A stretch of 20,000 bases of DNA from an uncultured Clostridia bacterium (GCA_964441745.1 CAYTYR010000002.1:106325-126324), one strand, 5' to 3'; positions 1 to 20,000 are shown, counted from the stretch's first letter. Numbers and translations: made by a program. Notes: a model not told the origin generated them from the sequence alone.

Positions 1-1
1 A

Positions 2-352: not shown

Positions 353-364
353 GTGGAGCTATTA

Positions 365-2143: not shown

Positions 2144-2167
2144 TCAGGTATTTTGCGAAAAAACCCC

Positions 2168-2196
2168 TTGACAGAACATGCAATATAATGTATATT
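2168..2196 (+). promoter_or_regulatory. Sigma70-type promoter of the abiE pair
   Basis: TTGACA (2168-2173), 17-nt spacer, TATATT (2191-2196). Confidence 0.65.
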
Positions 2197-2233
2197 TATT
2201 TCAGAAACTCCTAATTTAATAGGATAAGCTGAA

Positions 2234-3645: not shown

Positions 3646-3669
3646 CAAAACAGGATTTTCTGCTATATT
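3642..3669 (+). promoter_or_regulatory. Sigma70-type promoter upstream of the nucleotide-sugar genes
   Basis: TTGACA 3642-3647 overlaps the abiEii stop codon. An extended -10 TGcTATATT follows at 3661-3669. Confidence 0.6.
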
Positions 3670-3686
3670 TAATAAAAGTAATCATA

Positions 3687-3808
3687 AAGTTAATAGTCAC
3701 AGGTTGAAGGTTGTAGAAGTAGGTATGGAAGTAGGAAGTAAGGCTTTAAGCCCAACTTCCTCAGACCTAAGACTAAACCTACTTCCAAAACCAATACCCT
3801 TTAACTGT
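3687..3808. repeat. Imperfect palindromic element (GGAAGTAGG/CCTACTTCC family), ORF-less copy 1
   Basis: AGGTTGTAGAAGTAGGTATGGAAGTAGGAAGTA-AGGCTTTAAGCCC-AACTTCC...AAACCTACTTCCAAAACCAATACCCTTTAACTGT. Very similar to 7238-7358 and to the arms at 9218-9278/9711-9770. Confidence 0.85.
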
Positions 3809-3831
3809 TTTTAGTATTAATAGGAGATCTC

Positions 3832-4779: not shown

Positions 4780-6619
4780 GGAAAGACTAAAAAAGATCGT
4801 GGAGAAAAAGGCTAAAGCCGCTATTATCGGTCTCGGCTATGTCGGACTGCCCCTGGCGGTAGAATTGGCCAAGGCTGGCTTTGATGTGACAGGCATAGAT
4901 GTGGATAAGCGTAAGACAGATGCTATCAACAAAGGTCTTTCTTACATCCAGGATGTACCTTCAGCCGAAGTCAAAGAGCTGGTCAAAGCCGGCAAACTCC
5001 GGGCGACCACTGACTTTAGCGTCCTCAGGCATATCGACACTATCAATATCTGCGTCCCGACGCCTTTGCGCAAATCAAAAGACCCGGATATTTCCTATAT
5101 TCTCTCGGCTACTGCAGAAATAGCCAAATACCTGCACAAGGGCCAGCTCATTATCCTGGAAAGCACCACCTATCCTGGCACCACCGAAGAAGTCATGCAG
5201 CCGATGCTGGAAAAGAAGGGGCTCAAAGCCGGCCGTGATTTCCACCTGGCTTTTTCACCGGAGCGCGTGGACCCGGGCAATCCCCAGTTTAAGACCAAGA
5301 ATATTACCAAAGTTGTCGGCGGCTATACTCCCCACTGCACCGAGTTGGCCGTGGCTCTTTACAGCCAGGCCATTGATAACGTCTTGCCAGTCAGCTCCAC
5401 CCGGGTAGCCGAGACAGTCAAGCTGTTGGAAAATACCTTCCGCTCGATCAATATCGGCATGGTCAATGAAATGGCCATTATCTGTGACAAGCTCGGTATC
5501 GATGTCTGGGAAGTGATCGATGCGGCTGCGACCAAGCCATTCGGCTTTATGCCATTCTATCCTGGCCCTGGCATTGGGGGGCATTGTCTTGCCGCTGATG
5601 AATACATCTTCGTAAAAAATGATATGGGTGTACAGACTATTAAAATCGGAGATTATGTAAATAATTTAAGCAATTCTGATTCCACTTTAAAGCATCAACT
5701 AAGGGATATTACCTTAGTTAAACCTCAAAATGCCCAAACCCTTTCTTTTGATATGCAAAGCAAGACCTTCTCTTATAAAGATATTAATATTATGTCCAAA
5801 AGAGCATATAACGGGGAAATGAAAAGGATCAGCACTACTGATGGCCGTAAGATCACCGTCACAGATAAGCATCCCATGCTGGTTCATGATGCTGAAGGCA
5901 CTATACAGATCAAATTGGCTCAAGATATTCAGCCGGGAGATAGACTGCCACTTTGTTCTTTTTGGAAAGAAACAACAGAAAATATCAGTAAAAAGTTCAA
6001 AAGACACGATTCTTTTGCTACCGTAGAAGTAAAAGCTGTTGACACCATGCCTGGGCAGGATGTTTATTCTATGGAAGTGGATGATACTAACACTTTTGTA
6101 TCGTCTTATGGCATTGTTACCCATAATTGCATTCCATTAGACCCGCATTACCTGTCCTGGCGGGTACGGCTGGAAGGGTATGAAGCCAGGTTCATCGAAC
6201 TGGCTGGACAGATCAACCGCTCCATGCCAGAATATGTCATCAACAAGCTCAACGATGCTCTCAATGACAAGGGTAAGTCAGTGAAAAATGCCAAGATCCT
6301 GGTCCTGGGAGTGGCTTACAAGAATGACATTGATGATGTCCGCGAATCGCCGGCTATTGATTTCATCAAGCTCCTGCAGAAAAAAGGCGCCAAAGTTAAC
6401 TACCACGACCCGTTTATTCCAAACCTGGGACATGAAGGCATTAATTTAAAGTCTGTGCCCCTGACTGAGAGCACGGTCAAGTCTGTGGATGCGGTAGTCA
6501 TCATCACCAGGCACAAGGCTATCGACTACAAATGGCTGGTTTCCAAGGCTAAATTGGTCATCGATACCCGTAATGCCACCAAATCCCTTGGTAAACGGGC
6601 TAATGTGGTGAAACTATAA
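4772..6619 (+). CDS. wbpA: UDP-N-acetyl-D-glucosamine 6-dehydrogenase (WbpA-type nucleotide-sugar dehydrogenase) containing an intein
   Basis: GGAGG precedes ATG 4772, which overlaps the upstream stop. Motifs IGLGYVGLP, ICVPTP, ESTTYPGTT, FSPERVDPGN, KLLENTFR, PGPGIGGH-[intein]-CIPLDPHYL and GVAYKNDIDDVRESP. Confidence 0.88.
   Translation: MHEERLKKIVEKKAKAAIIGLGYVGLPLAVELAKAGFDVTGIDVDKRKTDAINKGLSYIQDVPSAEVKELVKAGKLRATTDFSVLRHIDTINICVPTPLRKSKDPDISYILSATAEIAKYLHKGQLIILESTTYPGTTEEVMQPMLEKKGLKAGRDFHLAFSPERVDPGNPQFKTKNITKVVGGYTPHCTELAVALYSQAIDNVLPVSSTRVAETVKLLENTFRSINIGMVNEMAIICDKLGIDVWEVIDAAATKPFGFMPFYPGPGIGGHCLAADEYIFVKNDMGVQTIKIGDYVNNLSNSDSTLKHQLRDITLVKPQNAQTLSFDMQSKTFSYKDINIMSKRAYNGEMKRISTTDGRKITVTDKHPMLVHDAEGTIQIKLAQDIQPGDRLPLCSFWKETTENISKKFKRHDSFATVEVKAVDTMPGQDVYSMEVDDTNTFVSSYGIVTHNCIPLDPHYLSWRVRLEGYEARFIELAGQINRSMPEYVINKLNDALNDKGKSVKNAKILVLGVAYKNDIDDVRESPAIDFIKLLQKKGAKVNYHDPFIPNLGHEGINLKSVPLTESTVKSVDAVVIITRHKAIDYKWLVSKAKLVIDTRNATKSLGKRANVVKL
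5585..6127 (+). mobile_element. Mini-intein (181 aa, no homing endonuclease visible) inserted at the catalytic Cys of the dehydrogenase
   Basis: Starts CLAADEYI (block A), has ITVTDKHPML (block B TxxH) and VYSMEVDDTNTF (block F), and ends IVTHN|C (block G). Removal restores GGHCIPLDP. The segment is visibly AT-richer than the exteins. Confidence 0.93.
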
Positions 6620-6629
6620 TGAATCTGCG

Positions 6630-6938
6630 TTGATTTATTCTTTAACTGCTAAAGGTAATTTTTCTAAAGACTGGGGCCTAAAGGAACAGATACAAAGAGC
6701 CTCGGTTTCCATAATGAGTAATATTGCTGAGGGATTTGACTGTAGTTCTAGTATAGAATTTGCCAGGTTTCTTGGAATAGCACGAAGGTCAGTTTCAGAG
6801 GTTCAAAACCAGCTTTATATTGCTCAAGATTTAGACTATATTAGTGTGGCTGAATTTAAACTCTTATATAATAACCTAGAAGAAACAAGAAGACTAATAA
6901 CTGCCTTTATCAAGTATCTTAAAAGCCATAAGTCTTAA
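6630..6938 (+). CDS. Four-helix-bundle protein (23S rRNA IVP/S23/Avd-like family), apparently N-terminally truncated and possibly a pseudogene
   Basis: Motifs GLKEQIQRASVSIMSNIAEGFD and FLGIARRSVSEVQNQLYIAQDLDYI. The usual N-terminal F.DL..WQ segment is missing, there is an in-frame stop at 6609-6611, and only a TTG start without an RBS is available. Confidence 0.8.
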   Translation: MIYSLTAKGNFSKDWGLKEQIQRASVSIMSNIAEGFDCSSSIEFARFLGIARRSVSEVQNQLYIAQDLDYISVAEFKLLYNNLEETRRLITAFIKYLKSHKS

Positions 6939-6998
6939 CTCGCAACTCGCAACTCGCAACTCGCAACTCGCAACTCGCAACTTGGAACTCGTAACTGT
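6937..6998 (+). repeat. 7-nt tandem repeat (AACTCGC)x6 plus degenerate units, ending AACTGT
   Basis: Six perfect AACTCGC units (6937-6978), then AACTTGG AACTCGT AACTGT. The array starts in the stop codon of the four-helix-bundle gene. Confidence 0.95.
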
Positions 6999-7012
6999 AT
7001 TATGCATTTCGC

Positions 7013-7041
7013 TTGACAAACCCGATTTTGTCTGCTATGTA
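7013..7041 (+). promoter_or_regulatory. Putative sigma70 promoter with a dyad in the spacer
   Basis: TTGACA 7013-7018, 17-nt spacer, TGcTATGTA, with a GACAAA...TTTGTC dyad. It resembles the promoter at 3642. Confidence 0.5.
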
Positions 7042-7058
7042 TCTATATATCTTTAAAA

Positions 7059-7104
7059 CCCGCCTGCCCTCGCATCTTTGATTTGCAGGCAAATCAGCAG
7101 AGGG
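7059..7104 (-). repeat. REP-like GC-rich hairpin, copy 1
   Basis: Its reverse complement CCCTCTGCTGATTTGCCTGCAAATCAAAGATGCGAGGGCAGGCGGG matches 13799-13847. Core stem TGATTTGC/GCAAATCA. Confidence 0.75.
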
Positions 7105-7142
7105 TAACCTTATTTTAATGTAGTTTAGTAGATTCCCTACAG

Positions 7143-7184
7143 GCTACAAAAGTGTATCACTACACTTATGTAGCTTTTTATTTT
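7143..7184 (+). terminator. Putative intrinsic terminator
   Basis: GCTACAAAAGTGTA-tcac-TACACTTATGTAGC stem followed by TTTTTATTTT. Confidence 0.65.
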
Positions 7185-7237
7185 CAAAATAGTTGGTATA
7201 ACCTGGTATAACCAAATCGTACAATTTCAATAAAATA

Positions 7238-7358
7238 TGTTTAAAGTTTGAGGTTGTAGAAGTAGGTATGGAAGTAAGAAGTAGGTCTTAAGGCTTAAAG
7301 CCCAACTTCCAAAGACCTCAAACCAAACCTACTTCCAAAACCAACACCCAATAACAGT
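7238..7358. repeat. Imperfect palindromic element (GGAAGTAGG/CCTACTTCC family), ORF-less copy 2
   Basis: AGGTTGTAGAAGTAGGTATGGAAGTAAGAAGTAGG...AGGCTTAAAGCCCAACTTCCAAAGACCTCAAACCAAACCTACTTCCAAAACCAACACCC. Confidence 0.85.
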
Positions 7359-7399
7359 ATTTATCTCTGTAATCGTTTTTAAGAGGAGGTTACTTAAGT

Positions 7400-7576
7400 A
7401 TGAATGGTCATCTGACAGTATGTCAAGTTTGCCAAAGACTCCATTGCCATCCCAATACTCTCAAGAGATGGGAGAAACGGTTGAGCCTGCGTGTCAAACG
7501 GGATTACCGTAACTATCGTATTTACACCGAAGACGACATCAAGAGGATCGAATCCTATATTACCCAGGAAAAATAA
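7400..7576 (+). CDS. Small stand-alone MerR-type helix-turn-helix protein (58 aa; not in the ORF track)
   Basis: Strong RBS GAGGAGGT at 7383-7390. My translation is MNGHLTVCQVCQRLHCHPNTLKRWEKRLSLRVKRDYRNYRIYTEDDIKRIESYITQEK, which has the MerR HTH pattern TLKRWE...R...NYRIYTEDDI. Confidence 0.85.
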   Translation: MNGHLTVCQVCQRLHCHPNTLKRWEKRLSLRVKRDYRNYRIYTEDDIKRIESYITQEK

Positions 7577-7597
7577 TTTTCCCGAAAAGGACCCCCC

Positions 7598-9214
7598 ATG
7601 AAAAGTAGAATTTTTTTAATTATTTTTACTCTAACTGTAATCTGTCCGCTGTCCGCTGTCCGCTGTGTTTGCGCTGCTAACTTCGACGAACAGCATCCCA
7701 CTGCCCGTACTGCCGGCATGGGTGGCGCTTTTACCGGCCAGGCAGATGATATCGGTGCTCTCTGGTTCAACCCCGCTGGTACAACCCAGCTGACCCAGAC
7801 CCAGGCTATCTATACCAATCTATCCCCATATATCACCCGGGAGAATGTCCCCTATTATCTGTCCCAATCCTTTAGTATGGCTTTCCCTTTAACCACAAAT
7901 AATGCTTTGGGCTTTGGCTGGAACAATTATCGGGTCAATTATACCTACCAGGAAAATACACTGCTGATGAATTATTCCCAGAAAATCAATCCATTTATCC
8001 CTTGGGAAATCAATGACCTGTCTTTTGGCTTGAACCTCAAAGGCCTCTTCTATGCGCCCAGTGGAGCTGGAGAGGATATTTTTGATTCCCTTTCTGGCGG
8101 TGACAAGGCCAGGAACGCTTTAGGAATTGATGCTGGTGTGCGCTATAAGATCAACACGGCGCTTAATTTTGGCCTTTCTTCTATGAATATCAATGAACCT
8201 GCGGTGCATATCACTGATCAGTATCAGCGTCTGCCCATCCAAACCAGGATAGGTCTTTCCTATAAAGTGCCCATGCCCGAAGCTCTCAAGAACATCGGTA
8301 TCGAGCAAATCACTGCCAATCTCGATGGGATCCTGGCCCAGGCTGAATGGGAGTCCAATATCGGAACGGAATTATCCCTGTTCAATAATGCCATTGCCTT
8401 GCGCGGAGGAGCTAATTCAACTGAAGCGTCTGCCGGGCTTGGCCTGGGGAGCATACAAACAAAGAAATTTGCCTTTGCGTTGGATTACGCATTTATCTAT
8501 GGCTACGGCCGGGACTTGCGTGACCGCCAGCATATAATATCCATCAATGTCAGCCGCCTGCTCACCAAGAAACCAGAAACAGTAGAGACGCCGGAAGAAG
8601 AAGTATCACCTTACCGTTTAGGGCCGGATGACGTCCTGCAGATCATTACCCGCAATCATGATGAATTTAGCGGCAAATTCGCAGTCGATCCCTATGGCAA
8701 GATCTTGATCCCGATGATCGGCGAGATCAAAGCCGAGGATCTGACCCGTGAAGAATTCACTGATGTCTTGAGAGAAGAAATCGGCAAATATGTCGAAGAA
8801 GCCAATGTCATAGTCTCTATTATCCAATACCGCAGTAAGGTGGTATATATCCTGGGTGAAGTGCGCACCCCTGGCAAATACCCGGTGGAAGGCGATTCTA
8901 TCGCCCTGCGCGACGCTATTGCCGCCGCCGGTTTCCCGACTGGCCTGGCTGCCACCTGGAGAGTCTACATTATTAAGCCCAGGACTGTCCGCCCCAGCTA
9001 CAAAATAGTGAACTTATACAAAATACTTTATCGCGGCAAGATGAAAAATAACATCATGATCACTCCTGGTGACATTGTCTATGTGCCGTCTACCATGCTG
9101 GGCAAGCTGGCTAACAGCCTGAGCCATTTGCTTGATCCATTCTATAAGACCAGGAGCCTGGTTACGCCATTATCAACACCGACGCCATTAGTCGATGAGG
9201 ATACAACGAACTAA
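7598..9214 (+). CDS. Fusion of an N-terminal PorV/PorQ-like outer-membrane beta-barrel with a C-terminal Wza/OPX polysaccharide export module (Poly_export plus SLBB)
   Basis: Signal peptide, then ARTAGMGGAFTGQADDIGALWFNPAG and ...ALRGG...LDYAF...QHIISINV (barrel), then linker KKPETVETPEEEVSP. From aa ~339: YRLGPDDVLQI, VDPYGKILIPMIGEIKAEDLT, VYILGEVRTPGKY and ITPGDIVYVP. Confidence 0.8.
   Translation: MKSRIFLIIFTLTVICPLSAVRCVCAANFDEQHPTARTAGMGGAFTGQADDIGALWFNPAGTTQLTQTQAIYTNLSPYITRENVPYYLSQSFSMAFPLTTNNALGFGWNNYRVNYTYQENTLLMNYSQKINPFIPWEINDLSFGLNLKGLFYAPSGAGEDIFDSLSGGDKARNALGIDAGVRYKINTALNFGLSSMNINEPAVHITDQYQRLPIQTRIGLSYKVPMPEALKNIGIEQITANLDGILAQAEWESNIGTELSLFNNAIALRGGANSTEASAGLGLGSIQTKKFAFALDYAFIYGYGRDLRDRQHIISINVSRLLTKKPETVETPEEEVSPYRLGPDDVLQIITRNHDEFSGKFAVDPYGKILIPMIGEIKAEDLTREEFTDVLREEIGKYVEEANVIVSIIQYRSKVVYILGEVRTPGKYPVEGDSIALRDAIAAAGFPTGLAATWRVYIIKPRTVRPSYKIVNLYKILYRGKMKNNIMITPGDIVYVPSTMLGKLANSLSHLLDPFYKTRSLVTPLSTPTPLVDEDTTN
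7635..7669 (+). repeat. 7-nt tandem repeat (CTGTCCG)x3 inside a signal-peptide coding region
   Basis: CTGTAAT CTGTCCG CTGTCCG CTGTCCG CTGTGTT. Confidence 0.85.
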
Positions 9215-9217
9215 TTG

Positions 9218-9770
9218 ATAGTTAAAGGGTGAAGGTTGTGGAAGTAGGTATGGAAGTAGGTCTAAAGTTTTTAGGTTTAAAATAATTTGAAAGGTAAATA
9301 ATGGAAACTAAGAAAATCATCAGGAGTTTTTACGATTTAGATGTGTATCAAAGTACATATAATGCAAGCATAAAAGTAATGACTAAGATACTTCCAACAC
9401 TACCAGAAAGTGAGAAATTTGATCTAAGAGATCAATTATCCAGATCCAGCAAAGCGATACCAAGATTAATAGCAGAAGGGTATGCGAAAAAGCATCAAAA
9501 AATGGGATTCCAGAAATATCTGGATGATGCTATGGCAGAAAATAATGAAACAATCGTAAGCTTAAGTCACTGCAGAGATATTTATTCTGATAAAATTGAT
9601 ATTGATTTATGTAAAGAGCTTATAAACTTGTATGACATCGCCGGGAAACAGTTATATAGGCTTTCACTGGCTTGGACGACATTTAAACGGAAGGAAAGTT
9701 AGTAAGTAGTAGCCTAACACCCTACACCTTACTTCCATACTTACTTCCAAAACTTTCAACAATTAACCAT
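9218..9770. mobile_element. Putative palindromic element carrying a four-helix-bundle gene in its loop
   Basis: The left arm 9218-9278 (ATAGTTAAAGGGTGAAGGTTGTGGAAGTAGGTATGGAAGTAGG...TAGGTTT) and the right arm 9711-9770 (AGCCTA...CCTTACTTCCATACTTACTTCCAAAACTTTCAACAATTAACCAT) are imperfect inverted repeats. Mobility is inferred, not shown. Confidence 0.6.
9301..9702 (+). CDS. Four-helix-bundle protein (23S rRNA IVP/S23/Avd-like family)
   Basis: Motifs SFYDLDVYQ, LPESEKFDLRDQLSRSSKAIPRLIAEGY and FQKYLDDAMAENNET. Confidence 0.88.
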   Translation: METKKIIRSFYDLDVYQSTYNASIKVMTKILPTLPESEKFDLRDQLSRSSKAIPRLIAEGYAKKHQKMGFQKYLDDAMAENNETIVSLSHCRDIYSDKIDIDLCKELINLYDIAGKQLYRLSLAWTTFKRKES

Positions 9771-9797
9771 ATTTTAAAAAGGGGAATTAAAACAACT

Positions 9798-11171
9798 ATG
9801 GACCAAATCACCTTCAGCATCCGCGATTACTTAATGATTTTCTTCCGCCGCAAATGGATCTTTATCGTGGCTTTGTCTCTTTGCCTCATCGGCGGGATCA
9901 TCTATGCCCTTACTGCTCCCAAGGTATATAATTCCGCATCTATTATCTATATCCAGAAAGCGGACATTCTTAATCCCCTGATGGATAAGATGGCCATCAC
10001 CAGCCAATATACTGAGACTGTCAAGACCATGAGAGAACGTGTCTTGAGCTGGCCCCGGCTGGTCACTATGAGTGAAAGCATTAAACTGGCCAAGAATATC
10101 AAGACGCCGCTGGAATTCGAAAAGTACATTATTAACCTCAGGAAAAGGATCAATATTGAAATGTTTAACCAGGACTTGGTGCGCATATCCTTTGAAGACC
10201 AGGATCCTTATATTGCAAAACAAGTCGTTGAATATCTCACTAATAACTTTATCGACGAAACCATCCAGCTCAAAAGCGAAGAAGCAGTCAAGGCTATTGA
10301 ATTCATTAGGGACCAGTTGAATGTCTATCGCGACAGATTGGAAGCCTCTGAAAAAGACCTGGGTGAATTAAAAGTTAAAGCGGAAATTGAAAATATTGAT
10401 AAACTGAAAGGGCTGATTAAAGACCAACTTTCCAGGCAAGACAAGGTGGTAATATCAGAAGTCAAAAAAGAACAGAACCCGGTCGTTAGGCAACTGAATG
10501 ACCACTTGGCGAAATTAGAGAGAGAGCTCAGCGGTTTGCTCATTGACTCTACTGAACAGCATCCCCGGGTCCAGGAATTGCGCAAGGAAATCTCCAAAAC
10601 CAAGGCCAAATTATCCTCGGAGCTGGAAAATACCACTTCGGTCAGTGTGGAAGAGAAATCAGCTTCTAATCCGATTTACTCTGAACTGGACCAGAGACTT
10701 AAGGCCCTGGAATTAAAACGGGAAGAATTACTGCAAAAGCAGGAAGAAATAAAAAAGAAAAGCAGTAAATATAAACTGTCTAATGTGAGCGATGCCGAGC
10801 TTTCAGCCATGGACCGCGATGCCAAAGTCAACGAAGCTCTCTACACTTCGCTCTTATCCAAGATGGAGAGCGCGCGTATCTCGCAACAGATGGAAACCCT
10901 GGACAAAGGCACCAGGTTTAAAGTGATTGACCCGGCTCGTATGCCCTTAAAGCCATCCAAGCCGAACATTTTTAAATCGCTGCTCATGAGTATTGCTTTG
11001 GGACTTGGTTTGGGCTTTGCCGGTATCTACCTATTGGAATATCTGGACCATTCCTTGAGAAATATTGAAGACGCCAAGGCCTTCTTCGATAAACCGATAC
11101 TTGGCGCTATCTCCAAGATTTCCCTGGAAGAAGACGCCAATAAAAATCTCAATCGAGTCATCCGTTCATAG
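9798..11171 (+). CDS. Polysaccharide co-polymerase/chain-length determinant (GumC/Wzc N-terminal-like)
   Basis: DYLMIFFRRKWIF plus a TM helix and PKVYNSAS, a long coiled coil with TEQHPRV, then FKVIDPARMPLKPSKPN plus a second TM helix and EYLDHSLRN. Confidence 0.9.
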   Translation: MDQITFSIRDYLMIFFRRKWIFIVALSLCLIGGIIYALTAPKVYNSASIIYIQKADILNPLMDKMAITSQYTETVKTMRERVLSWPRLVTMSESIKLAKNIKTPLEFEKYIINLRKRINIEMFNQDLVRISFEDQDPYIAKQVVEYLTNNFIDETIQLKSEEAVKAIEFIRDQLNVYRDRLEASEKDLGELKVKAEIENIDKLKGLIKDQLSRQDKVVISEVKKEQNPVVRQLNDHLAKLERELSGLLIDSTEQHPRVQELRKEISKTKAKLSSELENTTSVSVEEKSASNPIYSELDQRLKALELKREELLQKQEEIKKKSSKYKLSNVSDAELSAMDRDAKVNEALYTSLLSKMESARISQQMETLDKGTRFKVIDPARMPLKPSKPNIFKSLLMSIALGLGLGFAGIYLLEYLDHSLRNIEDAKAFFDKPILGAISKISLEEDANKNLNRVIRS

Positions 11172-12025: not shown

Positions 12026-13417
12026 ATGACATTCATAAACAGAAAGAAAGAATTAGCCAGCTTAAGCTCAATGTGGAAAGAACGCCGGAGCCATTTTGTG
12101 GTCATTTACGGCAAAAGGCGGGTCGGTAAGACCGAGCTTATCAAGCAATTCATGAAGAAGAAGCCGGGTATCTATTTCTTATCCGATAAAAGATCCAATC
12201 ACGATCAACTGCGTGAATTAAGCAGGATGTTCGGGGAATACTTTAACGATCCTTTATTGACCAAACAAGGATTTGGTGATTGGCTGGATGTTTTCCGTTA
12301 CCTTAAAAGAAATGTCCGGAAGCCATTTGTTTTCGCAATTGACGAATACCCCTATCTGGTGGAGGTGGATAAAGCTATAAGCTCGGTATTTCAGAAGGGG
12401 TGGGATGAATATCTGAAAACCAGCCAAGTCTTTCTTATCTTATCCGGCTCAAGTATCTCTATGATGGAATCAGAAGCTTTGATATATACCTCGCCCTTAT
12501 TCGGACGCCGGACAGGACAATATTTGATCGAGCCAATGCCATTTCAGGCCAGCCGGAAGTTTTTCCCGAAATTAGGGTTTAAGGAGTCCTTGAGAATATA
12601 TACGATAACTGGCGGTATGCCAGCCTATCTCTTGCAATTTGAGAAAAATCTTTCTCTGGAAGAAAATATTAAGCGAAGTATAATCAATAAAACCAGCTAT
12701 CTCTATAATGAAATTGAGTTTATCATCAAAGAGGAGTTAAGGGAGCCGAAGAACTATCTGTCCATATTGAGCGCTATTGCCTGGGGTAAGGCGAAATTCG
12801 GGGAAATCGTCAATGATACCGGCCTGGAGAAAAACGTACTGAACAAATACCTGGACACTTTAGTCAAACTGCATTTGATAGAGAAAGAGGTCCCGATCAC
12901 TGAAGATAAACCGCATAAATCCCGTAAAGGGATATACAAAATCGCCGACAATTATTTCCGGTTCTGGTTCCATTATATTTTCCCCTATAAGAGTGTCCTG
13001 GAGATTAACGACAGCGATCAGGTCCTGCGGGCTATAAAAGATAGTTTTACCGGTTTAGAAGCTCTTACCTATGAAAAAATATGCCGGGAAATGCTTTGGC
13101 AGTTCAAAGTAAAGATTTTTCCCTTTGAACAAGTAGGCAGGTGGTGGGATAAAGAGCAGGAGATAGATATGATAGGGATCAATGAGAACACAAAAGAAAT
13201 AGTCTTCGGGGAAGTCAAGTGGTCAAAGAATGAAGTAGGGACTGATATATATGAAAAATTAAAAGAAAAAGCCGGGAAAGTAGCCTGGAATTCCGGTAAC
13301 CGGAAGGAATATTATATTTTATTCAGCAAAAGCGGCTTTACGAAAAACATGAAAGACCTGGCCAAAAAAGAAAATGTTTTCTTAGTTCGCCAGGATAGAT
13401 TGCTATCATTAAACTAA
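12026..13417 (+). CDS. Archaeal-type ATPase (ATPase_2) with wHTH and a C-terminal DUF234/PD-(D/E)XK-like domain
   Basis: FINRKKEL, Walker A YGKRRVGKT, Walker B AIDEYPYL, GRRTG, TGGMPAYL, DNYFRFWF and GRWW...EIDMIG...FGEVKW. Confidence 0.88.
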   Translation: MTFINRKKELASLSSMWKERRSHFVVIYGKRRVGKTELIKQFMKKKPGIYFLSDKRSNHDQLRELSRMFGEYFNDPLLTKQGFGDWLDVFRYLKRNVRKPFVFAIDEYPYLVEVDKAISSVFQKGWDEYLKTSQVFLILSGSSISMMESEALIYTSPLFGRRTGQYLIEPMPFQASRKFFPKLGFKESLRIYTITGGMPAYLLQFEKNLSLEENIKRSIINKTSYLYNEIEFIIKEELREPKNYLSILSAIAWGKAKFGEIVNDTGLEKNVLNKYLDTLVKLHLIEKEVPITEDKPHKSRKGIYKIADNYFRFWFHYIFPYKSVLEINDSDQVLRAIKDSFTGLEALTYEKICREMLWQFKVKIFPFEQVGRWWDKEQEIDMIGINENTKEIVFGEVKWSKNEVGTDIYEKLKEKAGKVAWNSGNRKEYYILFSKSGFTKNMKDLAKKENVFLVRQDRLLSLN

Positions 13418-13879: not shown

Positions 13880-14251
13880 ATGGATCTATTGATAAAAAAC
13901 GACATTGAGAAAAGGACGCGTAACTACGCTATACAAGCAATTAAATTAGCAAAGAGTATTGAAAAAGACGATATAAATCGAATACTGATTAGACAATATG
14001 TTAGATCAGCCACATCGCTTGGAGCTAATGTAGCTGAAGCCCAAGCAGCTTCAAGCAGAAAAGATTTCGTTAATAAGATGCAAATAGCAAGTAAGGAGGC
14101 TCGTGAAACAAAGTATTGGCTAAGCATAATGCGCGATATAGAAGTTTGCACTAAGGCTAAAATAGCAGAGAACATCCAGGAAGCAGGTCAAATTATCAAT
14201 ATAATAACAGCTATAGTAAAAAATACTCAAAAAAATGAAGCCTATTTTTAG
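13880..14251 (+). CDS. Four-helix-bundle protein (23S rRNA IVP/S23/Avd-like family)
   Basis: RQYVRSATSLGANVAEAQAASSRKDFVNKMQIASKEARETKYWL. Confidence 0.9.
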   Translation: MDLLIKNDIEKRTRNYAIQAIKLAKSIEKDDINRILIRQYVRSATSLGANVAEAQAASSRKDFVNKMQIASKEARETKYWLSIMRDIEVCTKAKIAENIQEAGQIINIITAIVKNTQKNEAYF

Positions 14252-14269: not shown

Positions 14270-15277
14270 ATGTTGTTTAACCTTAACTCAAAACTCAAAA
14301 CTTATGACTCAAAACTGTTTTTAACATTGCTGCTTCTATGCGCCGTAATCCAACCACGAACTCTCTTGGCCCAAAGCCATAAAAACTCCGGCGCCAACGG
14401 CGCCCAAATATTGGAATTAAAAACCGGCGCTCGCCCCTCCGCCATGGGCGGCGCGTTTGTGAGTATCAGCGATGATTCTAATGCTGTCGCCTACAATCCA
14501 GCCGGCTTGGCTTATTTGACCAAAACAGAGCTTCAGCTCAACCAGAACAAATTATTTTCTGAAGCTACTTCCAACTACATTGGCTGGGTCTATCCCTTGG
14601 ATGAAATGCATGCCCGCAATGTTTTTGACCTGGGTACTTTAGCTGGCAACCTGAACTTTGTTGATTATGGCAAGATAGCCGGTCGCGATAATTTGGGCAA
14701 TGACACCGGAGAATTCGGAGCCAGGGACAGAGTCATCTCTCTGGCCTATGGCAAGGCCTTTACTACTAACTTTGCCGTTGGCTTAACTGCCAGGCAAATT
14801 CGGGAAGAGATTGCCGCTGTCACTGCCAATGGTTACAGCTTTGATGCCGGTATGCTCTTCACCAATATTATGGATACCTTTAATATCGGCATTGCTGCCC
14901 AAAACTTGGGAGACAAGATCACCTTTGAGCAGGAAGCCAATCCTCTGCCCGCCAATTATGTCATCGGTACCTCCTTAAACCTCTTTGATAACAGCTTGAC
15001 CTTAGCCGCTGACCTGAACAAGCCAGTCCATGACTACTACCATTGGAACTTTGGCAGTGAATATTGGCTCACCAGTGTCTTAGCTCTGCGTCTGGGCTAT
15101 GATACCAAGCATGATATCGGCAACGGGCTCTCAACAGGAATCGGCGTTAGTTTGCAGGATTTTGAATTTTCCTTTGTCCCGCTCTCTGAACTGGCGATCA
15201 ACTATGCCTATGTTTCCCGCGGTGACCTTGGTGTCATCCACCAGATAGAGTTGGTGCTAAAGATAGGTATTGAGTAA
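14270..15277 (+). CDS. PorV/PorQ-family (UPF0164-like) outer-membrane beta-barrel protein
   Basis: RBS GGAGG and a signal peptide. Motif GARPSAMGGAFVSISDDSNAVAYNPAGLA, alternating beta strands, and FGSEYW...LALRLGY...INYAY...GDLGVIHQIEL. Confidence 0.85.
   Translation: MLFNLNSKLKTYDSKLFLTLLLLCAVIQPRTLLAQSHKNSGANGAQILELKTGARPSAMGGAFVSISDDSNAVAYNPAGLAYLTKTELQLNQNKLFSEATSNYIGWVYPLDEMHARNVFDLGTLAGNLNFVDYGKIAGRDNLGNDTGEFGARDRVISLAYGKAFTTNFAVGLTARQIREEIAAVTANGYSFDAGMLFTNIMDTFNIGIAAQNLGDKITFEQEANPLPANYVIGTSLNLFDNSLTLAADLNKPVHDYYHWNFGSEYWLTSVLALRLGYDTKHDIGNGLSTGIGVSLQDFEFSFVPLSELAINYAYVSRGDLGVIHQIELVLKIGIE
14285..14319 (+). repeat. 7-nt tandem repeat (AACTCAA) in the 5' coding region, ending AACTGT
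   Basis: AACTCAA AACTCAA AACTTAT GACTCAA AACTGTT, encoding NSKLKTYDSKL. Confidence 0.8.
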
Positions 15278-15301
15278 AGGAGAAGTTTTAGAAAATACAT
15301 A

Positions 15302-15387
15302 TTCCGGTTTTAGAGTGCGGCCAACGGGAGTCTCCGCCAACAAGCTTTGGCGGACGCAGCGCAGAAGCCTTAGTGGAGGAGAAGAGT
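15302..15387 (+). repeat. Intergenic imperfect-palindrome repeat, copy 1 (lacks the 5' CTCCGCCAC)
   Basis: TTCCGGTTTTAGAGTGCGGCCAACGGGAGTCTCCGCCAACAAGCTTTGGCGGACGCAGCGCAGAAGCCTTAGTGGAGGAGAAGAGT. Confidence 0.9.
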
Positions 15388-15453
15388 TTCCTGGTTATTA
15401 GATAGAGATAGTCATCAAGATTAGCATGGAATAAAGCCACTGTAAATAGCATA

Positions 15454-15516
15454 ATTAGTATATTATACTTGACAATTTATTAGTATATATAGTATATTAA
15501 TATTAGTAATTACTAA
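15454..15516 (+). promoter_or_regulatory. Sigma70 promoter with operator-like repeats
   Basis: TTGACA 15469-15474 and TATATT 15493-15498. ATTAGTATAT occurs at 15454 and 15479, and the perfect palindrome TTAGTAATTACTAA at 15503-15516. Confidence 0.6.
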
Positions 15517-15554
15517 AGTAATGCACCTGCAAAACAGAAGGGGCGCTCTAAACA

Positions 15555-16844
15555 ATGCCTGAGAATTTTAGAAGAAAAATATTTACAAATCTTAAGAGTT
15601 TTATTAAAGATAAAGAAATTATTGTTATCCATGGTTCCCGCCAAGTTGGGAAGACATGGCTTATGCGTTATATTACAGACCAACATCTTAAAGATCTGGT
15701 GCCGAATAATAACATATTCTATTTTGACCTTGAAGATTTTCGCTTATTGGAGCTATGTAATTCATCCGCCGAAGAGGTCGTTTCCTACCTCAAAGCAAAG
15801 GGGGCAGATTTTCAACAAAAAATCTTTTTACTCATAGATGAGATCCAATATCTCAACAATCCCTCTAGTTTTCTCAAATATTTTTATGATCACTACCAGG
15901 ATAATGTAAAATTAATAGTATCCGGCTCTTCCAGTTTATTAATAAAGAGAAAATTTCAGGATAGCCTGGTAGGAAGAACAATGGAATTTGAGTTGTTTAC
16001 TTTGGATTTTGAGGAATTCCTGAAGTTTAAGAAATATAATTACGATCTTGAAGGAGATCTGCCCAAAAAACTGCATGAAGAGTTAAAAGTACTTTACCAT
16101 GAGTTTGTGCTTTTTGGCGGATATCCGGCTGTTGTATTGGAGAATGAAACAGACAAAAAAGAGTTAAAGCTGAAACAAATAATAAATACTTATATTAAAA
16201 AAGATATTCGGGACTTGGCCGAGATCAGGGATATAGATAAATTTAACAATTTGGTAAAGATGGTTTCCGCGCAAACAGGAAGTCTAATGAATGTTTTAGA
16301 GTTGGCTACTACGCTTGGCTTAGCTAAGCAAACAGTACAGGGATACCTGTTTCTTCTGGAAAACACTTACATTATCAGGAGAATTAAACCCTTTCACCGC
16401 AATATAAGAAGCGAACTTAGCAAAATGCCAAAGGTTTTCCTGGAAGATACCGGCTTGGCAAATGTTTTAATCAATAAAACATTTTCTTTTAATATGGATG
16501 GTAATTTACTGGAAAACAGCGTTTATTCCCAAATTCGCAAGAATATTCCGGTAGAAAATATTAATTATTGGAGAACCATTAAAAAACAGGAAGTTGATTT
16601 TGTAATTGATTACATCGATCGAGAAGGCAAAAAGGTGTTATTGGCTGTAGAAGTGAAAAACATGTTTCTGAATAAATATAGTTCTAATCTCCGCTACTTC
16701 AAACAGCAATATAAGCAAGCCGAGATATATTTTTGTTGCCTGGATAAAAAGGAAACATCAAAAGATAGCCAGGTTAAGATTATTTATCCCTGGGAATTAT
16801 TAAAAACCCTGAATCTCAAGGTTAAGCCAGGGATTCCTTACTAA
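15555..16844 (+). CDS. AAA_14-family ATPase with a C-terminal DUF4143 (PD-(D/E)XK-like) domain
   Basis: Walker A HGSRQVGKT, Walker B LLIDEIQY, VSGSSS, SLVGR, FGGYPAV, MPKVFLEDTGL and YWRT...EVDFVI...AVEVK. Confidence 0.88.
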   Translation: MPENFRRKIFTNLKSFIKDKEIIVIHGSRQVGKTWLMRYITDQHLKDLVPNNNIFYFDLEDFRLLELCNSSAEEVVSYLKAKGADFQQKIFLLIDEIQYLNNPSSFLKYFYDHYQDNVKLIVSGSSSLLIKRKFQDSLVGRTMEFELFTLDFEEFLKFKKYNYDLEGDLPKKLHEELKVLYHEFVLFGGYPAVVLENETDKKELKLKQIINTYIKKDIRDLAEIRDIDKFNNLVKMVSAQTGSLMNVLELATTLGLAKQTVQGYLFLLENTYIIRRIKPFHRNIRSELSKMPKVFLEDTGLANVLINKTFSFNMDGNLLENSVYSQIRKNIPVENINYWRTIKKQEVDFVIDYIDREGKKVLLAVEVKNMFLNKYSSNLRYFKQQYKQAEIYFCCLDKKETSKDSQVKIIYPWELLKTLNLKVKPGIPY

Positions 16845-16846
16845 TG

Positions 16847-16970
16847 ACTCCGCCACTGCCGGTTTTAGAGTGCGGCCAATGGGAGTCTCCGCCAACATCC
16901 TCCAATAAGCTTTGGCGGACTAAAGAGCTTTGGCGGACGCAGCGCAGAAGCCTTAGTGGAGGAGAAGAGT
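16847..16970 (+). repeat. Intergenic imperfect-palindrome repeat, copy 2 (internal duplication of AGCTTTGGCGGAC)
   Basis: ACTCCGCCACTGCCGGTTTTAGAGTGCGGCCAATGGGAGTCTCCGCCAAC...GCAGCGCAGAAGCCTTAGTGGAGGAGAAGAGT. It begins 3 nt after the ATPase stop codon. Confidence 0.9.
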
Positions 16971-17041
16971 GGGTAAAATAGGCAGCTTTCACGATTCAGT
17001 GCCTGCCCTTGCAGTTTTATATTAAGGTTATTGATAAATCC

Positions 17042-17085
17042 TTGACACTTAGTAGTAAATATGTTATTCTTACAGTAGTAAATAT
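17042..17085 (+). promoter_or_regulatory. Sigma70 promoter with a direct-repeat operator
   Basis: TTGACA 17042, 17-nt spacer, TGtTATTCT. AGTAGTAAATAT is repeated at 17051-17062 and 17074-17085. Confidence 0.7.
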
Positions 17086-17103
17086 TACCAGGAGGTGATA
17101 AAT

Positions 17104-17376
17104 ATGCTCGCCAAAGTCAGTATTAAACACCAGATTACGATTCCCAAAAACATCGCGGTTGCTTTTAATCTCAAAAAAGGGGACTTTCTGGAAATTGAGA
17201 GAAAGGGAAATAAGATTATTATGATTCCAAAAGAAGTTATTCTTGAAGATAAATATCCACAGGAAAGCCTGGCGGCCGCGGAAAAAATCCTGGCCAAAGG
17301 CCTGCCTAAAGAAGAAATCACCTTTAACTCAGGGGTAGCCGTGGTAGACTTTTTTAAAAAAAGGGTTAAAAAATGA
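17104..17376 (+). CDS. AbrB/MazE/SpoVT-family DNA-binding protein (putative antitoxin)
   Basis: GGAGGTG RBS precedes ATG 17104. Motif AKVSIKHQITIPKNIAVAFNLKKGDFLEI...KIIMIP. ATGA overlap with the next gene. Confidence 0.85.
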   Translation: MLAKVSIKHQITIPKNIAVAFNLKKGDFLEIERKGNKIIMIPKEVILEDKYPQESLAAAEKILAKGLPKEEITFNSGVAVVDFFKKRVKK

Positions 17377-17660
17377 GATATTTTGTTCTGCGTTCGTTTG
17401 TCAAAAAATTTGATAGCTGCACAAAAACAGAACAGGAAGCAATTAATCTTGTCATAGAGCAAATCAAAAATTATTTGGAAACCAATCAGGAGCCTTATGG
17501 ATTGAGAATTAAAAGTCTTTCCTTAAGGATTTATGAAGCCAGAGTTAATATTCACCTGCGGATTGTTTATTTTCGCCAAAAGGACATAGTAAAATTCTTT
17601 TGTTTAGGCGATCATGACGATATCAAAAGGTTTCTTAAAAACGTAAAGAAATTTCTGTAA
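17373..17660 (+). CDS. Putative RelE/ParE-superfamily toxin
   Basis: Basic 95-aa protein coupled to the AbrB gene, reading SFVKKFD...GLRIKSL...IYEARVNIHLRIVY...LGDHDDI. Confidence 0.7.
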   Translation: MRYFVLRSFVKKFDSCTKTEQEAINLVIEQIKNYLETNQEPYGLRIKSLSLRIYEARVNIHLRIVYFRQKDIVKFFCLGDHDDIKRFLKNVKKFL

Positions 17661-17750
17661 AACTCCGCCACTTCCGGTTTTAGAGCGCGGCCAATGGGAG
17701 TCTCCGCCAAGAAGATAGGCGGACACAGCGCCGAGTATTAGTGGAGGAGT
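17661..17750 (+). repeat. Intergenic imperfect-palindrome repeat, copy 3
   Basis: AACTCCGCCACTTCCGGTTTTAGAGCGCGGCCAATGGGAGTCTCCGCCAAGAAGATAGGCGGACACAGCGCCGAGTATTAGTGGAGGAGT. It abuts the toxin stop codon. Confidence 0.9.
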
Positions 17751-17773
17751 AAAGTGATTAAATGAGTAGTATT

Positions 17774-17827
17774 TATACGATACAATCGTATATTTTCTTG
17801 ACAATATATACGATATTATCGTATAAT
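17774..17827 (+). promoter_or_regulatory. Sigma70 promoter overlapped by two palindromic operators with identical arms
   Basis: TATACGAT-N3-ATCGTATA at 17774-17792 and 17807-17825. TTGACA 17798-17803 and TATAAT 17822-17827. Confidence 0.8.
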
Positions 17828-17843
17828 TAGCTAGGAGGGATAA

Positions 17844-19022
17844 ATGGAAACTCTATTTTATCGCTATAACCCCTGGTGGGAAGGAAAGTTAACTTTAGAG
17901 GGCATAATAGAGCGGTCTAAGCCGTTGTCTATAATGCGCAGAAATCTCCAGACCAAGCAGATAGTTCTCTTAACTGGTTTAAGAAGGGTAGGGAAAACCA
18001 CTCTTCTTAAGCTTTTTATCAAGAGTCTTATAGAAAGAGAGAACATTGACGCGAAACATATATTTTATATAAGTCTTGATGATTATTTATTAACAAAAAA
18101 ATCGATAATAGAGATAGTAGATGAATTCAGATCGATCAATAAGATAAGTTTTAAGGAGAAAGTATATCTTTTCTTTGATGAGATCACTTATAAAAAAGAT
18201 TTTGAGCTTCAATTAAAGAACTTGTACGATAGCCAGGAAGTAAAAATATATGCTTCTTCTTCCAGCGCGTCTGTTTTAAGGAGCCGCAAACCTTATTTAA
18301 CCGGGCGGCATGTTACTTTAGAAATTATGCCATTAGACTTTCAGGAATATTTAATATTTAAGCAAATCAATATTCAAAAAAGTGACCAGCACCTGGTCGC
18401 GTCGCATTTTGAAGGTTTCCTCTTCACTGGAGGATTGCCTGAATATGTTCTTCATGGGGATATAGAGTATTTAAAGGAACTGGTTGATGACATTATATAC
18501 AAAGATATCGCTTCCTTTTATAAGATCAGAAAACCTCAAATATTAAAAGATTATTTTGTTCTGCTGATGGAACGCGCCGGCAAAGTGGTAAGTATAAATA
18601 AAATAGCTCATATATTAAAGATTTCTCCGGATACCGCTAAAAGGTATCTAAAGATGTTTGCTGATACTTATCTGATATATTTAGTATCAAGGCACGGCAA
18701 AACAAATGATAACATCCTTGCGCCCAAGAAAATCTATGCGGCTGATCTGGGGGTAAGATGCATATTTACAGGAAACAGGGATAAGGGGAGCCTTTTTGAA
18801 AACTATATTTATCTCAAGATCAAGGATGAAAATCCGAAATATCTATATCAGGATGGGACGGAAATAGATTATTTAACTGAAGATAAGACTCTTATTGAAG
18901 TAAAGTATGGGAAAGATTTAAATGAAATTCAGGAGAAATTATTTAAGAAATTCAAGGCAGATAAGAAGGTTATTATTAAAAGCAACTATGATTTGGAAAA
19001 ATATCTGGAAAAAGAGTATTAG
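17844..19022 (+). CDS. AAA_14-family ATPase with a C-terminal DUF4143-like domain
   Basis: YNPWW, Walker A TGLRRVGKT, Walker B FFDEI, LTGR, TGGLPEY, PKKIYAADLG and EIDYL...LIEVKY. RBS AGGAGG. Confidence 0.88.
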   Translation: METLFYRYNPWWEGKLTLEGIIERSKPLSIMRRNLQTKQIVLLTGLRRVGKTTLLKLFIKSLIERENIDAKHIFYISLDDYLLTKKSIIEIVDEFRSINKISFKEKVYLFFDEITYKKDFELQLKNLYDSQEVKIYASSSSASVLRSRKPYLTGRHVTLEIMPLDFQEYLIFKQINIQKSDQHLVASHFEGFLFTGGLPEYVLHGDIEYLKELVDDIIYKDIASFYKIRKPQILKDYFVLLMERAGKVVSINKIAHILKISPDTAKRYLKMFADTYLIYLVSRHGKTNDNILAPKKIYAADLGVRCIFTGNRDKGSLFENYIYLKIKDENPKYLYQDGTEIDYLTEDKTLIEVKYGKDLNEIQEKLFKKFKADKKVIIKSNYDLEKYLEKEY

Positions 19023-19033
19023 ATTAACCGTAA

Positions 19034-19128
19034 AACTCCGCCACTTCCGGTTTTAGAGTGCGGCCAATGGGAGTCTCCACCAAGAAGATAGGCGGACACA
19101 GCGCCGAGTATTAGTGGAGGAGAAGAGT
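19034..19128 (+). repeat. Intergenic imperfect-palindrome repeat, copy 4
   Basis: AACTCCGCCACTTCCGGTTTTAGAGTGCGGCCAATGGGAGTCTCCACCAAGAAGATAGGCGGACACAGCGCCGAGTATTAGTGGAGGAGAAGAGT. It starts 12 nt after the ATPase stop codon. Confidence 0.9.
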
Positions 19129-19204
19129 TAAGGTCACCTTCAATGCGGGAATGAAGGTGGCAGCGCATGACCCAGCAGTTTTTTGTAGGATCGGTTAATA
19201 AAAC

Positions 19205-19262
19205 TTGACAGTTTAGATGTAAAATGGTTTATTTTTAATTAAAACTGTCGCCAAACGACAGT
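19205..19262 (+). promoter_or_regulatory. Putative promoter/operator of the second abiEi-like gene
   Basis: TTGACA 19205-19210 with a weak -10. Inverted repeats GACAGTTT (19207-19214)/AAACTGTC (19242-19249) and ACTGTCG/CGACAGT (19244-19262). Confidence 0.5.
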
Positions 19263-19274
19263 ATTAAGGATAAT

Positions 19275-19910
19275 ATGCTAAATATTATTGAAGAAATCAG
19301 AGAAAATATTCCTCAGGATATTCTAACAGATGATATCCTTATGAATCTTAGGGATGGAAGTCCGAATAAGCGTTACGGAGTTGTTAAACGGGCGATTGCT
19401 AAAGGGGAGTTAGTCCATATTAAGCGGGGACTTTATCACTTGGCAAAAAAATATCAACGTAAAAGCCTTAATCTATTTGAATTGGCACAATGGATTTATG
19501 GGCCTTCCTATATTAGTTTTGAATCAGCTCTTTCTTATCATGGCTGTATTCCTGAATCGGTTTATGCTGTGATTAGCGCCTGCTCTCGAAATGCCAAAGA
19601 GTTTCACACCCCAGCGGGTTATTTTATTTATAAACGGATTCCTTATCCCATGCTTTATCTGGGTGTTGAACGAGTAAAATCCGAAAATAGTACGTTCTTT
19701 ATGGCCTCTCCTTTAAGAGCGGTTATGGATTATGTTTATGTTTATCGAAAAAACTGGAGAGGCATTGATCCGCTAATCAAAAGTTTGCGGATAGAAGAGC
19801 AGGCCATTAATCAATGGAATTATAGTTTAGGCTCTTCTCCTTTTCAAGTGGATGAATCTGACAGTTTTGGAAGCATACACGTAAGGACTTTGAGCCGTAG
19901 ATATTCTTGA
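19275..19910 (+). pseudogene. AbiEi-family antitoxin/regulator interrupted after codon 185 by an ISL3 insertion; the last ~26 codons are IS-derived
   Basis: Motifs GELVHIKRGLY, IYGPSYISFESALSYHGCIPE, MASPLRAVMDYVY and SLRIE. The sequence from 19830 onward is an IS end. Confidence 0.75.
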
Positions 19911-20000
19911 TCCTTGAGCCCGTAGGCTCTTCGTTGAAACACCCTGATTTTGTTATTGAGGCCTTCGACAAAGCCCAGGGAAACATTGTTCTTGTTTTCT
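19830..20000 (-). mobile_element. Right end of an ISL3-family insertion sequence (continues beyond the window)
   Basis: The terminus GGCTCTTCTCCTTTTCAAGTGG starts at 19830 (ISL3-type GGCTCT end). It lies just past the transposase stop and next to an AT-rich target. Confidence 0.85.
19844..19999 (-). CDS. C-terminal fragment of an ISL3-family transposase
   Basis: My minus-strand translation is ENKNNVSLGFVEGLNNKIRVFQRRAYGLKDQEYLRLKVLTCMLPKLSDSST*, which has the ISL3 motif EG.NNKI....RRAYG. Confidence 0.88.
   Translation of the reverse strand, partial: ENKNNVSLGFVEGLNNKIRVFQRRAYGLKDQEYLRLKVLTCMLPKLSDSST

Follow-up and report, generated by a model that had tools for sequence, protein, structure and literature searches.

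The attC sites of integrons, above all those of the VCR (Vibrio cholerae repeat) type in sedentary chromosomal integrons, are imperfect palindromes which follow each open reading frame (ORF) in direct orientation and are far more alike than the genes between them, and the cassettes carry toxin-antitoxin (TA) or defence cargo with a content that varies from strain to strain. In Acinetobacter plasmids, TA, resistance and accessory modules are stacked between short recombination sites, forming the pdif (XerC/D) modules. The IS200/IS605 elements and the palindrome-associated transposable elements (PATEs) have subterminal hairpins of the same strand at both ends, are mobilised by Y1 transposases of the HUH type and insert beside a short specific sequence; to our knowledge, cargo-carrying arrays are not a described feature of them. 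Repetitive extragenic palindromic (REP) sequences and bacterial interspersed mosaic elements (BIMEs), as well as REPINs (REP doublets forming hairpins) with their RAYTs (REP-associated tyrosine transposases), are short, GC-rich, extragenic imperfect palindromes, which are dispersed, lineage-restricted, modular or mosaic, and found at gene 3' ends. REPs next to stop codons reportedly have an effect on translation in E. coli. In Neisseria, the dRS3 repeats with the NIMEs (neisserial intergenic mosaic elements) and the Correia elements are mosaic intergenic repeats, and the minimal mobile elements are small strain-variable modules between conserved genes, whose exchange is attributed to homologous recombination. 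Publications on parts of this background are PMC3337134 and PMC3116915 (REPIN and RAYT), PMC3082526 and PMC2649163 (minimal mobile and Correia elements of Neisseria) and PMC10121019 and PMC10250203 (defence hotspots). Here we analysed the 20,000-nt stretch G000:C2:106325-126324 (the window), whose final base coincides with a contig end, and describe an array of direct hairpin repeats of a REP/BIME-like family which separate ATPase and TA genes.

The array lies 3' of a conserved outer-membrane protein (OMP) gene, where a polysaccharide-export cluster ends, in an island which is AT-richer than its surroundings (GC 0.33-0.39 across 15-19 kb vs 0.456 for the contig). As a sequence-only reading of the window had proposed, four direct copies of the repeat are placed around three units, namely an AAA_14 ATPase, an AbrB/RelE-like pair and another AAA_14 ATPase, and the repeat search, MAFFT alignment, direct reading and Pfam returned the same coordinates and gene content. 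The features are as follows, in positions of the window.

14270-15277, plus strand: OMP gene (FadL/PorV-like; weak Pfam matches to Toluene_X, UPF0164 and PorV), the last core gene before the island and the anchor of synteny.
15302-15387, plus strand: repeat copy 1, subtype A, without the 5' outer arm, 24 nt past the OMP stop codon; 79.6 bits with the covariance model (CM) R1.
15469-15498, plus strand: promoter-like site of unit 1 (TTGACA, 18 nt, TATATT; 11/12 matches).
15555-16844, plus strand: unit 1, ATPase with AAA_14 (7e-32) and DUF4143 (3e-36) domains; PADLOC PDC-S01, which is a candidate for defence by one gene, 5e-77.
16847-16970, plus strand: repeat copy 2, subtype A, with the full 5' arm and a 29-nt insertion at 16897-16925.
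17042-17070, plus strand: promoter-like site of the TA unit (10/12 matches, with TG), followed by two direct AGTAGTAAATAT boxes, which were read directly.
17095-17376, plus strand: unit 2a, AbrB/MazE-type antitoxin (MazE_antitoxin 5e-8; AbrB family 3e-11).
17373-17660, plus strand: unit 2b, RelE/ParE-like toxin of 95 aa, whose start overlaps the antitoxin stop (ATGA).
17661-17755, plus strand: repeat copy 3, subtype B, beginning at the first base after the toxin stop; 88.2 bits with the CM, and the best predicted hairpin (z -2.9).
17770-17829, plus strand: operator-like inverted repeat of 27 nt, 85% complementary, which encloses a perfect promoter-like site at 17798-17827 (12/12).
17844-19022, plus strand: unit 3, second AAA_14 + DUF4143 ATPase; PADLOC PDC-S01, 3e-68.
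19034-19128, plus strand: repeat copy 4, subtype B, with a G>A change in the inner stem; 83.4 bits with the CM.
19275-19825, plus strand: AbiEi-like antitoxin gene, 3'-truncated; PADLOC AbiEi 8e-52, residues 3-180 aligned.

With blastn E-values of 1e-13 to 1e-43, the similarity among the repeats goes far past what chance would give. All four copies have a 43-nt block in common (91-93% identity). Identity reaches 96% over 99 nt between copies 3 and 4 and 100% over 45 nt between the right halves of copies 1 and 2, and in their left halves copies 2-4 agree to about 96%. The alignment thus displays the two subtypes that had been noticed from the sequence (A, copies 1-2; B, copies 3-4), which diverge only from the inner-hairpin loop rightwards, and also the missing 5' arm of copy 1. 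Copies 2-4 had been placed within 12 nt of the preceding stop codon, and their measured gaps are 2, 0 and 11 nt respectively. The long imperfect hairpin was borne out as far as complementarity is concerned, since 9 of the 10 positions of the outer arms are complementary and 6 bp form the inner stem, but the predicted fold is no more than modestly better than that of shuffled sequences (DNA z -0.5, -1.8, -2.9 and -1.5 for copies 1-4, with similar values for RNA). RNAalifold supported the inner stem and a GCGC/GCGC stem with zero compensatory changes, and no Rfam family was found at E<=1 anywhere in the window.

For the units between the repeats, Pfam, PADLOC and Atlas agree with the gene calls made before. 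No Pfam family was found in the toxin ORF of unit 2b; its closest Atlas clusters are RelE/ParE toxins (score 0.96), and PADLOC gave a weak match to CARF_RelE (E 0.0055). The abiEi-like gene announced after copy 4 is indeed there and is also truncated, as a repeated mobile fragment breaks it off near 19826. It had further been claimed that each unit has its own promoter, and the top three promoter-like sites on the plus strand (12/12, 11/12 and 10/12 matches) each lie upstream of one of the three units; overall such sites are not enriched, with 15 in the region vs 12.9 +/- 3.7 in shuffles. The ATPases of units 1 and 3 are just 26% identical, whereas the repeats behind them are more than 90% identical. 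A recent tandem duplication of an ATPase-plus-repeat unit is therefore ruled out, and judging from these identities the contrast would fit concerted evolution or recent recombination of the repeats.

To place the repeat in its genome, we searched the source genome G000 (39 contigs, 2.07 Mb, GC 0.41-0.47) with a core pattern consisting of TCCGCC, a loop, GGCGGA and then C.CAGCGC, i.e. the hairpin with its 3' tail. It turned out that 27 loci on 18 contigs contain the core outside the array, compared with 0 in three shuffled genomes, and these dispersed copies typically read GATTAC-CCGCC-loop-GGCGGG-CGCAGCAC-AGATTA. Fifteen of the 27 loci lie no more than 14 nt from the stop codon of an ORF of 100 aa or more, in the same orientation in 11 cases and in the opposite one in 4, and one more locus is 34 nt away from such a stop. 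Among the genes upstream of these 16 loci are those for PGK (pgk), class II aldolase, FtsW/RodA (ftsW), L21 (rplU), PlsY (plsY), a DAP (diaminopimelate)/ornithine decarboxylase and a TonB receptor, and none of the 16 is a TA or defence gene. Full-length copies are much rarer than the core: four in the window and one on contig C11 in 2.07 Mb.

The comparison set comprised 9 genomes for the source phylum, with G001-G005 as the sister species or genomes. CM R1, which was built from the four window copies and six relatives, recovered at E<1e-10 five copies in G000, six in G001, one each in G003, G004 and G005, and none in G002, and at E<=1e-6 it found none in three genomes outside the genus. In a DNA search with the repeat, 4 of 5 sister species matched and 0 of 35 other genomes. 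The full-length relatives in sister species adjoin genes for MFS, GT9/GT1, HD-GYP, GDT1, BRO-N and similar proteins, in both orientations. Pattern scans of metagenome contigs, with the window-specific left half and with the genus-wide core, returned 0 stretches, and a scan of genome contigs returned 17 loci, of which 4 are in one metagenome-assembled genome (MAG) record and the rest are singles in unrelated, mostly GC-rich taxa, taken as chance. The insertion at 16897-16925 turns the centre of copy 2 into the approximately 70-nt 'long form' of a dispersed hairpin element, which is also scattered in G002-G004; weak CM matches of about 70 nt belong to this long form, a tRNA origin having been rejected because ARAGORN found 0 tRNA genes in 7 such loci.

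Given the dispersed core hairpins and the full-length relatives that occur only in the genus, the repeat belongs, as a compact form, to a REP/BIME-like family that is modular, confined to the genus and habitually placed just behind stop codons. Dispersal of the repeat behind ordinary housekeeping genes had been named as the outcome that would point to a simple REP or terminator, and this outcome was found in part: the core hairpin is dispersed in this way, and full-length relatives stand beside ordinary genes in the sister species. The family differs from described REPs and BIMEs in its low copy number (about 30 core hairpins and 5 full-length copies) and in lacking a conserved GTAG-type tetranucleotide 5' of the core hairpins, whose 5' flanks are GATTAC or GGGAGTC. 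With regard to MITEs (miniature inverted-repeat transposable elements), which have terminal inverted repeats and a target-site duplication, the outer arms of the window repeat are complementary at 9 of 10 positions, and reading by eye showed no consistent duplication around its four copies. G000 resembles REPIN-RAYT genomes in possessing Y1 transposase genes, but these are multi-copy and carry DnaA_C, and the repeats form a direct array around whole genes.

The gene content of the island is strain-specific. The order Wza, Wzz, ParA-like protein, T9SS (type IX secretion system)-tail protein and OMP is conserved in G002, G003 and G004, where the OMP orthologues share 80-82% and 61% identity and the upstream order is kept. 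Unrelated genes start about 10-30 nt past the OMP stop in G003 and G004, and the G002 contig stops exactly at the OMP stop. The three units are thus absent from the orthologous site in both sister genomes with assembly past the OMP gene (2 of 2; G003 and G004), and no repeat was found at this site there (CM with filters off, best E 0.27). When we looked for the far side of the island, the genes 3' of the OMP gene in G003 and G004 had no orthologues in G000.

For a check across samples, Logan contigs from four runs (X2, X3, X4 and X5) were aligned to 14300-19800. In X3, which comes from a different study with a different habitat label, a 1422-nt contig, the only solid bridge obtained, consists of an OMP orthologue (about 80%), 41 letters, and then 17661-18454 at about 98%, i.e. 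it skips the first ATPase and the TA pair and continues with the complete repeat, including the 5' arm, and the second ATPase. From the order on this contig it follows that a full repeat abuts the OMP stop codon in that population.

The same arrangement of direct repeats was found at two other places. On contig C11 of G000 (C11:38000-48000, about 3600-5900, minus strand), a Phd-ParE pair lies between two direct composite repeats of about 220 nt, of which the downstream one has an intact core of the repeat (CM 71.8 bits) and the upstream one a degenerate core; the array continues with small unknown ORFs parted by related hairpins, up to an ankyrin-repeat gene. Contig C13 of G004, over its entire 10.8 kb (1-10788), carries six direct composite hairpin repeats at a spacing of 0.9-2.4 kb, and its units are a WYL protein, an HNH protein, a Y1_Tnp+DnaA_C block, several small ORFs and a BrnT/CopG pair, with a Thi4 gene adjoining. 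The separation of small accessory units by direct arrays of hairpin repeats thus recurs in the genus.

Starting from the family relationship, the stop-proximal placement also seen behind housekeeping genes, the strain-specific modules and the absence of integron features, we favour on balance, and with modest confidence, the explanation that modular REP/BIME-like hairpins of gene 3' ends separate independently acquired, self-promoted defence/TA units in a strain-variable island, and that they serve as junctions where recombination adds, removes and reorders units. Modules would have accreted 3' of the conserved OMP gene, with repeats at their 3' ends and junctions, and the near-identical direct copies could provide portable homology. 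A module with one repeat might then be excised as a circle and integrate again at any of the other copies (Campbell-type, through host recombination), which could build up repeat-module-repeat arrays whose left and right halves are mosaic. In the transcript, the hairpin would probably act as an insulator or stabiliser of the 3' end between self-promoted units. Recombination at the repeats would explain why they are much more similar to each other than the genes are, why their halves are mosaic and why the copies form an array. The minimal mobile elements of Neisseria, in another phylum and with other sequences, have their homology in flanking core genes and not in repeats between modules. The pdif modules differ in their 28-bp Xer sites of alternating inverted orientation, in contrast to hairpins of 90-125 nt which are direct in 4 of 4 cases here.

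The earlier description of the locus as cassette-like holds for separable modules which are bounded by the repeat and missing in 2 of 2 sister loci, and does not hold for the attC framing, as R boxes are lacking. Its companion suggestion, that the repeats are scars of serial integration at one site, is possible. The reading of modules with junctions at the repeats has partial support.

Several observations weigh against recombination at the repeats as the favoured explanation. A TA homologue in G005 is 88% identical over the promoter and gene start, its upstream sequence is unrelated and it has no repeat, so the TA unit can move without one; likewise, a 75% homologue of the Phd-ParE pair in G005:C109 holds none of the sub-motifs. 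The 5' end of the repeat abuts three stop codons (toxin, 0 nt; first ATPase, 2 nt; OMP of X3, about 0-2 nt as estimated from the 41 letters), which resembles a preferred target or the defined end of an element more than a homologous crossover. The X3 contig is a de Bruijn assembly and could switch strains inside a shared repeat, although its junction of OMP stop and repeat start stands regardless, and no recombination product was directly observed. The hairpins are not followed by a T-tract, and none of them coincides with a called terminator-like site. Besides, all five strong full-length copies of G000 (5 of 5) adjoin TA or defence genes, which would not be expected of a neutral REP.

The usual explanations of defence islands are integrases, transposons or homology of flanking core genes. 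Here small palindromic repeats, of a kind normally dismissed as REP or terminator clutter, are found at every junction of three arrays of exchangeable defence and TA genes, in a lineage which has barely been studied. If the repeats do mediate exchange, through host recombination or Y1, they would represent a simple cassette-style shuffling of genes without an integron, and direct hairpin arrays might then be a practical search rule for locating accessory and defence genes of bacteria that have not been cultivated.

Should the repeats be nothing more than hairpins of 3' ends, the locus would be an ordinary defence island decorated with REP-like elements. According to this explanation, which we regard as unlikely, the repeats are mere RNA or DNA 3'-end elements (terminator-like, stabiliser, insulator or selfish REP) which colonised an island built in another way and have no role in mobility. 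Stop-proximal placement is in fact a habit of the whole family behind housekeeping genes, self-promoted units would benefit from insulation, and the TA homologues of G005 do without the repeat. It accords poorly, however, with four same-orientation copies within 3.8 kb against one other full-length copy in the whole genome, with their near identity and the mosaic of left and right halves, with the OMP-to-repeat junction in another metagenome, and with the parallel arrays on C11 and G004:C13.

Dedicated transposition is the next explanation, in which the units are non-autonomous transposable cassettes with same-strand hairpin ends, moved to post-stop sites by a Y1 transposase (HUH; IS200/IS605 or RAYT type) or another dedicated enzyme; to us this seems rather improbable. 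There are 7-8 Y1_Tnp genes in G000, and several encode a fusion with a DnaA_C helix-turn-helix (HTH) domain. On contig C8, a gene for a 315-aa Y1_Tnp+DnaA_C protein is bounded by inverted 43-nt copies (5314-5356 and 6324-6365) with 90.7% identity, and one short motif of these ends recurs in the window:

16986-17010, plus strand: solo Y1-end motif of about 25 nt, just after repeat copy 2, corresponding to the terminal inverted repeats of the C8 Y1_Tnp+DnaA_C element.

The exact 13-nt core of this motif occurs at 10 sites genome-wide, the window site included, and the motif closes both composite repeats of C11. Moreover, a Y1_Tnp+DnaA_C gene stands within the array of G004:C13, all array hairpins are on the same strand, as single-strand HUH transposition needs, and the 5' ends of the repeat abut three different stops with recurring flanks GTAAA/TAAA. 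On the other hand, the inverted repeats which flank the C8 Y1 gene are of a motif different from the window repeat, and that motif is beside copy 2 only, of four. The core hairpin is near just 2 of 7 Y1 genes and the CM found no strong copy next to them, by eye there is no consistent target-site duplication at the four copies and no conserved cleavage motif, and the array has no transposase inside it or next to it; the window ends in an unrelated mobile fragment. The window units also lack the tnpA of IS200/IS605 elements. A bolder variant, which we hold to be doubtful, is that in this small candidate phylum REP-like hairpins were co-opted as integrase-free cassette boundaries, such that self-promoted defence/TA genes between same-strand hairpins would be excised and put back just behind stop codons by an enzyme of Y1+DnaA-type HTH or another kind, building the arrays of the window, C11 and G004:C13. 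As further observations on C8 (3926-7258), tandem GACCCCATTGTTTA-type repeats lie 3' of the Y1_Tnp+DnaA_C gene, and solo copies of the C8 terminal motif are scattered over the genome, several of them at contig ends.

A true integron is present in G000 on another contig, C1 (about C1:52400-58132). The only match above the TIGR02249 cut-off is at C1:57158-58108 (405 bits vs a cut-off of 265), with its own array alongside, which is divergent from intI, has canonical attC sites ATCTAAC ... GTTAGAT/GTTAAAT and carries as cassettes an HNH protein, an MNT/HepT pair and a BrnT-like toxin; the intI frame contains a single in-frame TAA. Within this array there is also a Y1_Tnp fragment, which is broken (C1:53435-53686). 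In the window, the strict RYYYAAC...GTTRRRY (R''/R') pattern has 0 sites in 15200-19300, compared with 2 in the C1 array as control, and Pfam found no recombinase among the window proteins; both agree with the remark, already made from the sequence, that canonical boxes are not conserved and no integrase is in the window. The array likewise has no adjacent intI, attI or Pc promoter, and the window repeat shares no sequence with the C1 attC sites. Since R boxes are lacking and a true integron with canonical attC sites exists on C1, the integron/attC reading of the repeat, which had been put forward as a non-canonical cassette array, is not supported. A non-canonical integron array or CALIN (cluster of attC sites lacking an integrase) served in trans by the C1 integrase is accordingly very improbable. 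In its favour, the genome encodes an integron integrase, and the repeats are highly homogeneous imperfect palindromes just 3' of ORFs in a single orientation, like the attC sites of sedentary chromosomal integrons; a role of sedentary integrons in storing defence systems is reported in bioRxiv 10.1101/2024.07.02.601686. Against it stand the missing R''/R' boxes, the different attC sequence on C1, the in-frame TAA in intI, the own promoter of every unit and the repeat-family members behind housekeeping genes.

Some further candidates were examined and set aside. The cover of X4 and X5 (first ATPase in X4; first ATPase and TA in X5; almost none of the second ATPase in either) was discounted as a sign that the units occur separately, as holes in contig cover prove nothing, and the X4/X5 joints 16844>16953, 16895>19095, 17000>19135 and 19182>17022, with sides of 27-53 nt and 88% likeness, are mere hints. 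The X2 joint 15434>19025 (side 25) with a loose end at 15370 is best read as copy 4 mis-laid on copy 1, because the right ends of copies 1 and 4 are identical. A shared GTTTTAGA 8-mer before copy 1, together with a loose resemblance to the G003 post-OMP sequence, was considered as att cores and dropped as probably coincidental.

Two more features lie at the right end of the window:

19135-19162, plus strand: another small dispersed hairpin, with copies on contigs C7, C10 and C17.
19826-20000, minus strand: end of a multi-copy mobile element and also the contig end, with a 99% match to C1 and shared with the ends of C28, C32 and C36.

The latter fragment has as its sole other internal copy the 147-nt remnant on C1. 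No Pfam family was found at E<=0.001 in the 63-aa peptide at the window end, and this C-terminal peptide resembles the tail of an ISL3-type transposase; the label 'ISL3-like' is tentative, because Pfam found nothing and the other internal copy is a remnant. Besides the truncated AbiEi at 19275, the window contains a second AbiE system, a complete AbiEi/AbiEii pair at 2234-3645, upstream of sugar-nucleotide genes.

Other observations concern the remainder of the window. An ATPase_2+DUF234 protein is encoded at 12026-13417 (PADLOC PDC-S27, E 3e-49), between the ParA-like and T9SS-tail genes; tblastn found no match to it in the orthologous regions of G002, G003 and G004, which makes it another strain-specific insertion in the polysaccharide cluster. 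A gene for a 23S-rRNA-IVS (intervening sequence) protein at 9301-9702 is enclosed by a 58-nt inverted repeat (9218-9275 / 9713-9770, 74% complementary), of which gene-less arm copies or related repeats exist at 3690-3813 and 7233-7363, and a second gene for a 23S-rRNA-IVS protein is at 13880-14251. The UDP-glucose/GDP-mannose dehydrogenase gene at 4718-6619 is split by an intein (Intein_splicing domain, residues 333-470), and a tandem run of about 8 units of the heptamer AACTCGC occupies 6930-6989, directly 3' of an ORF.

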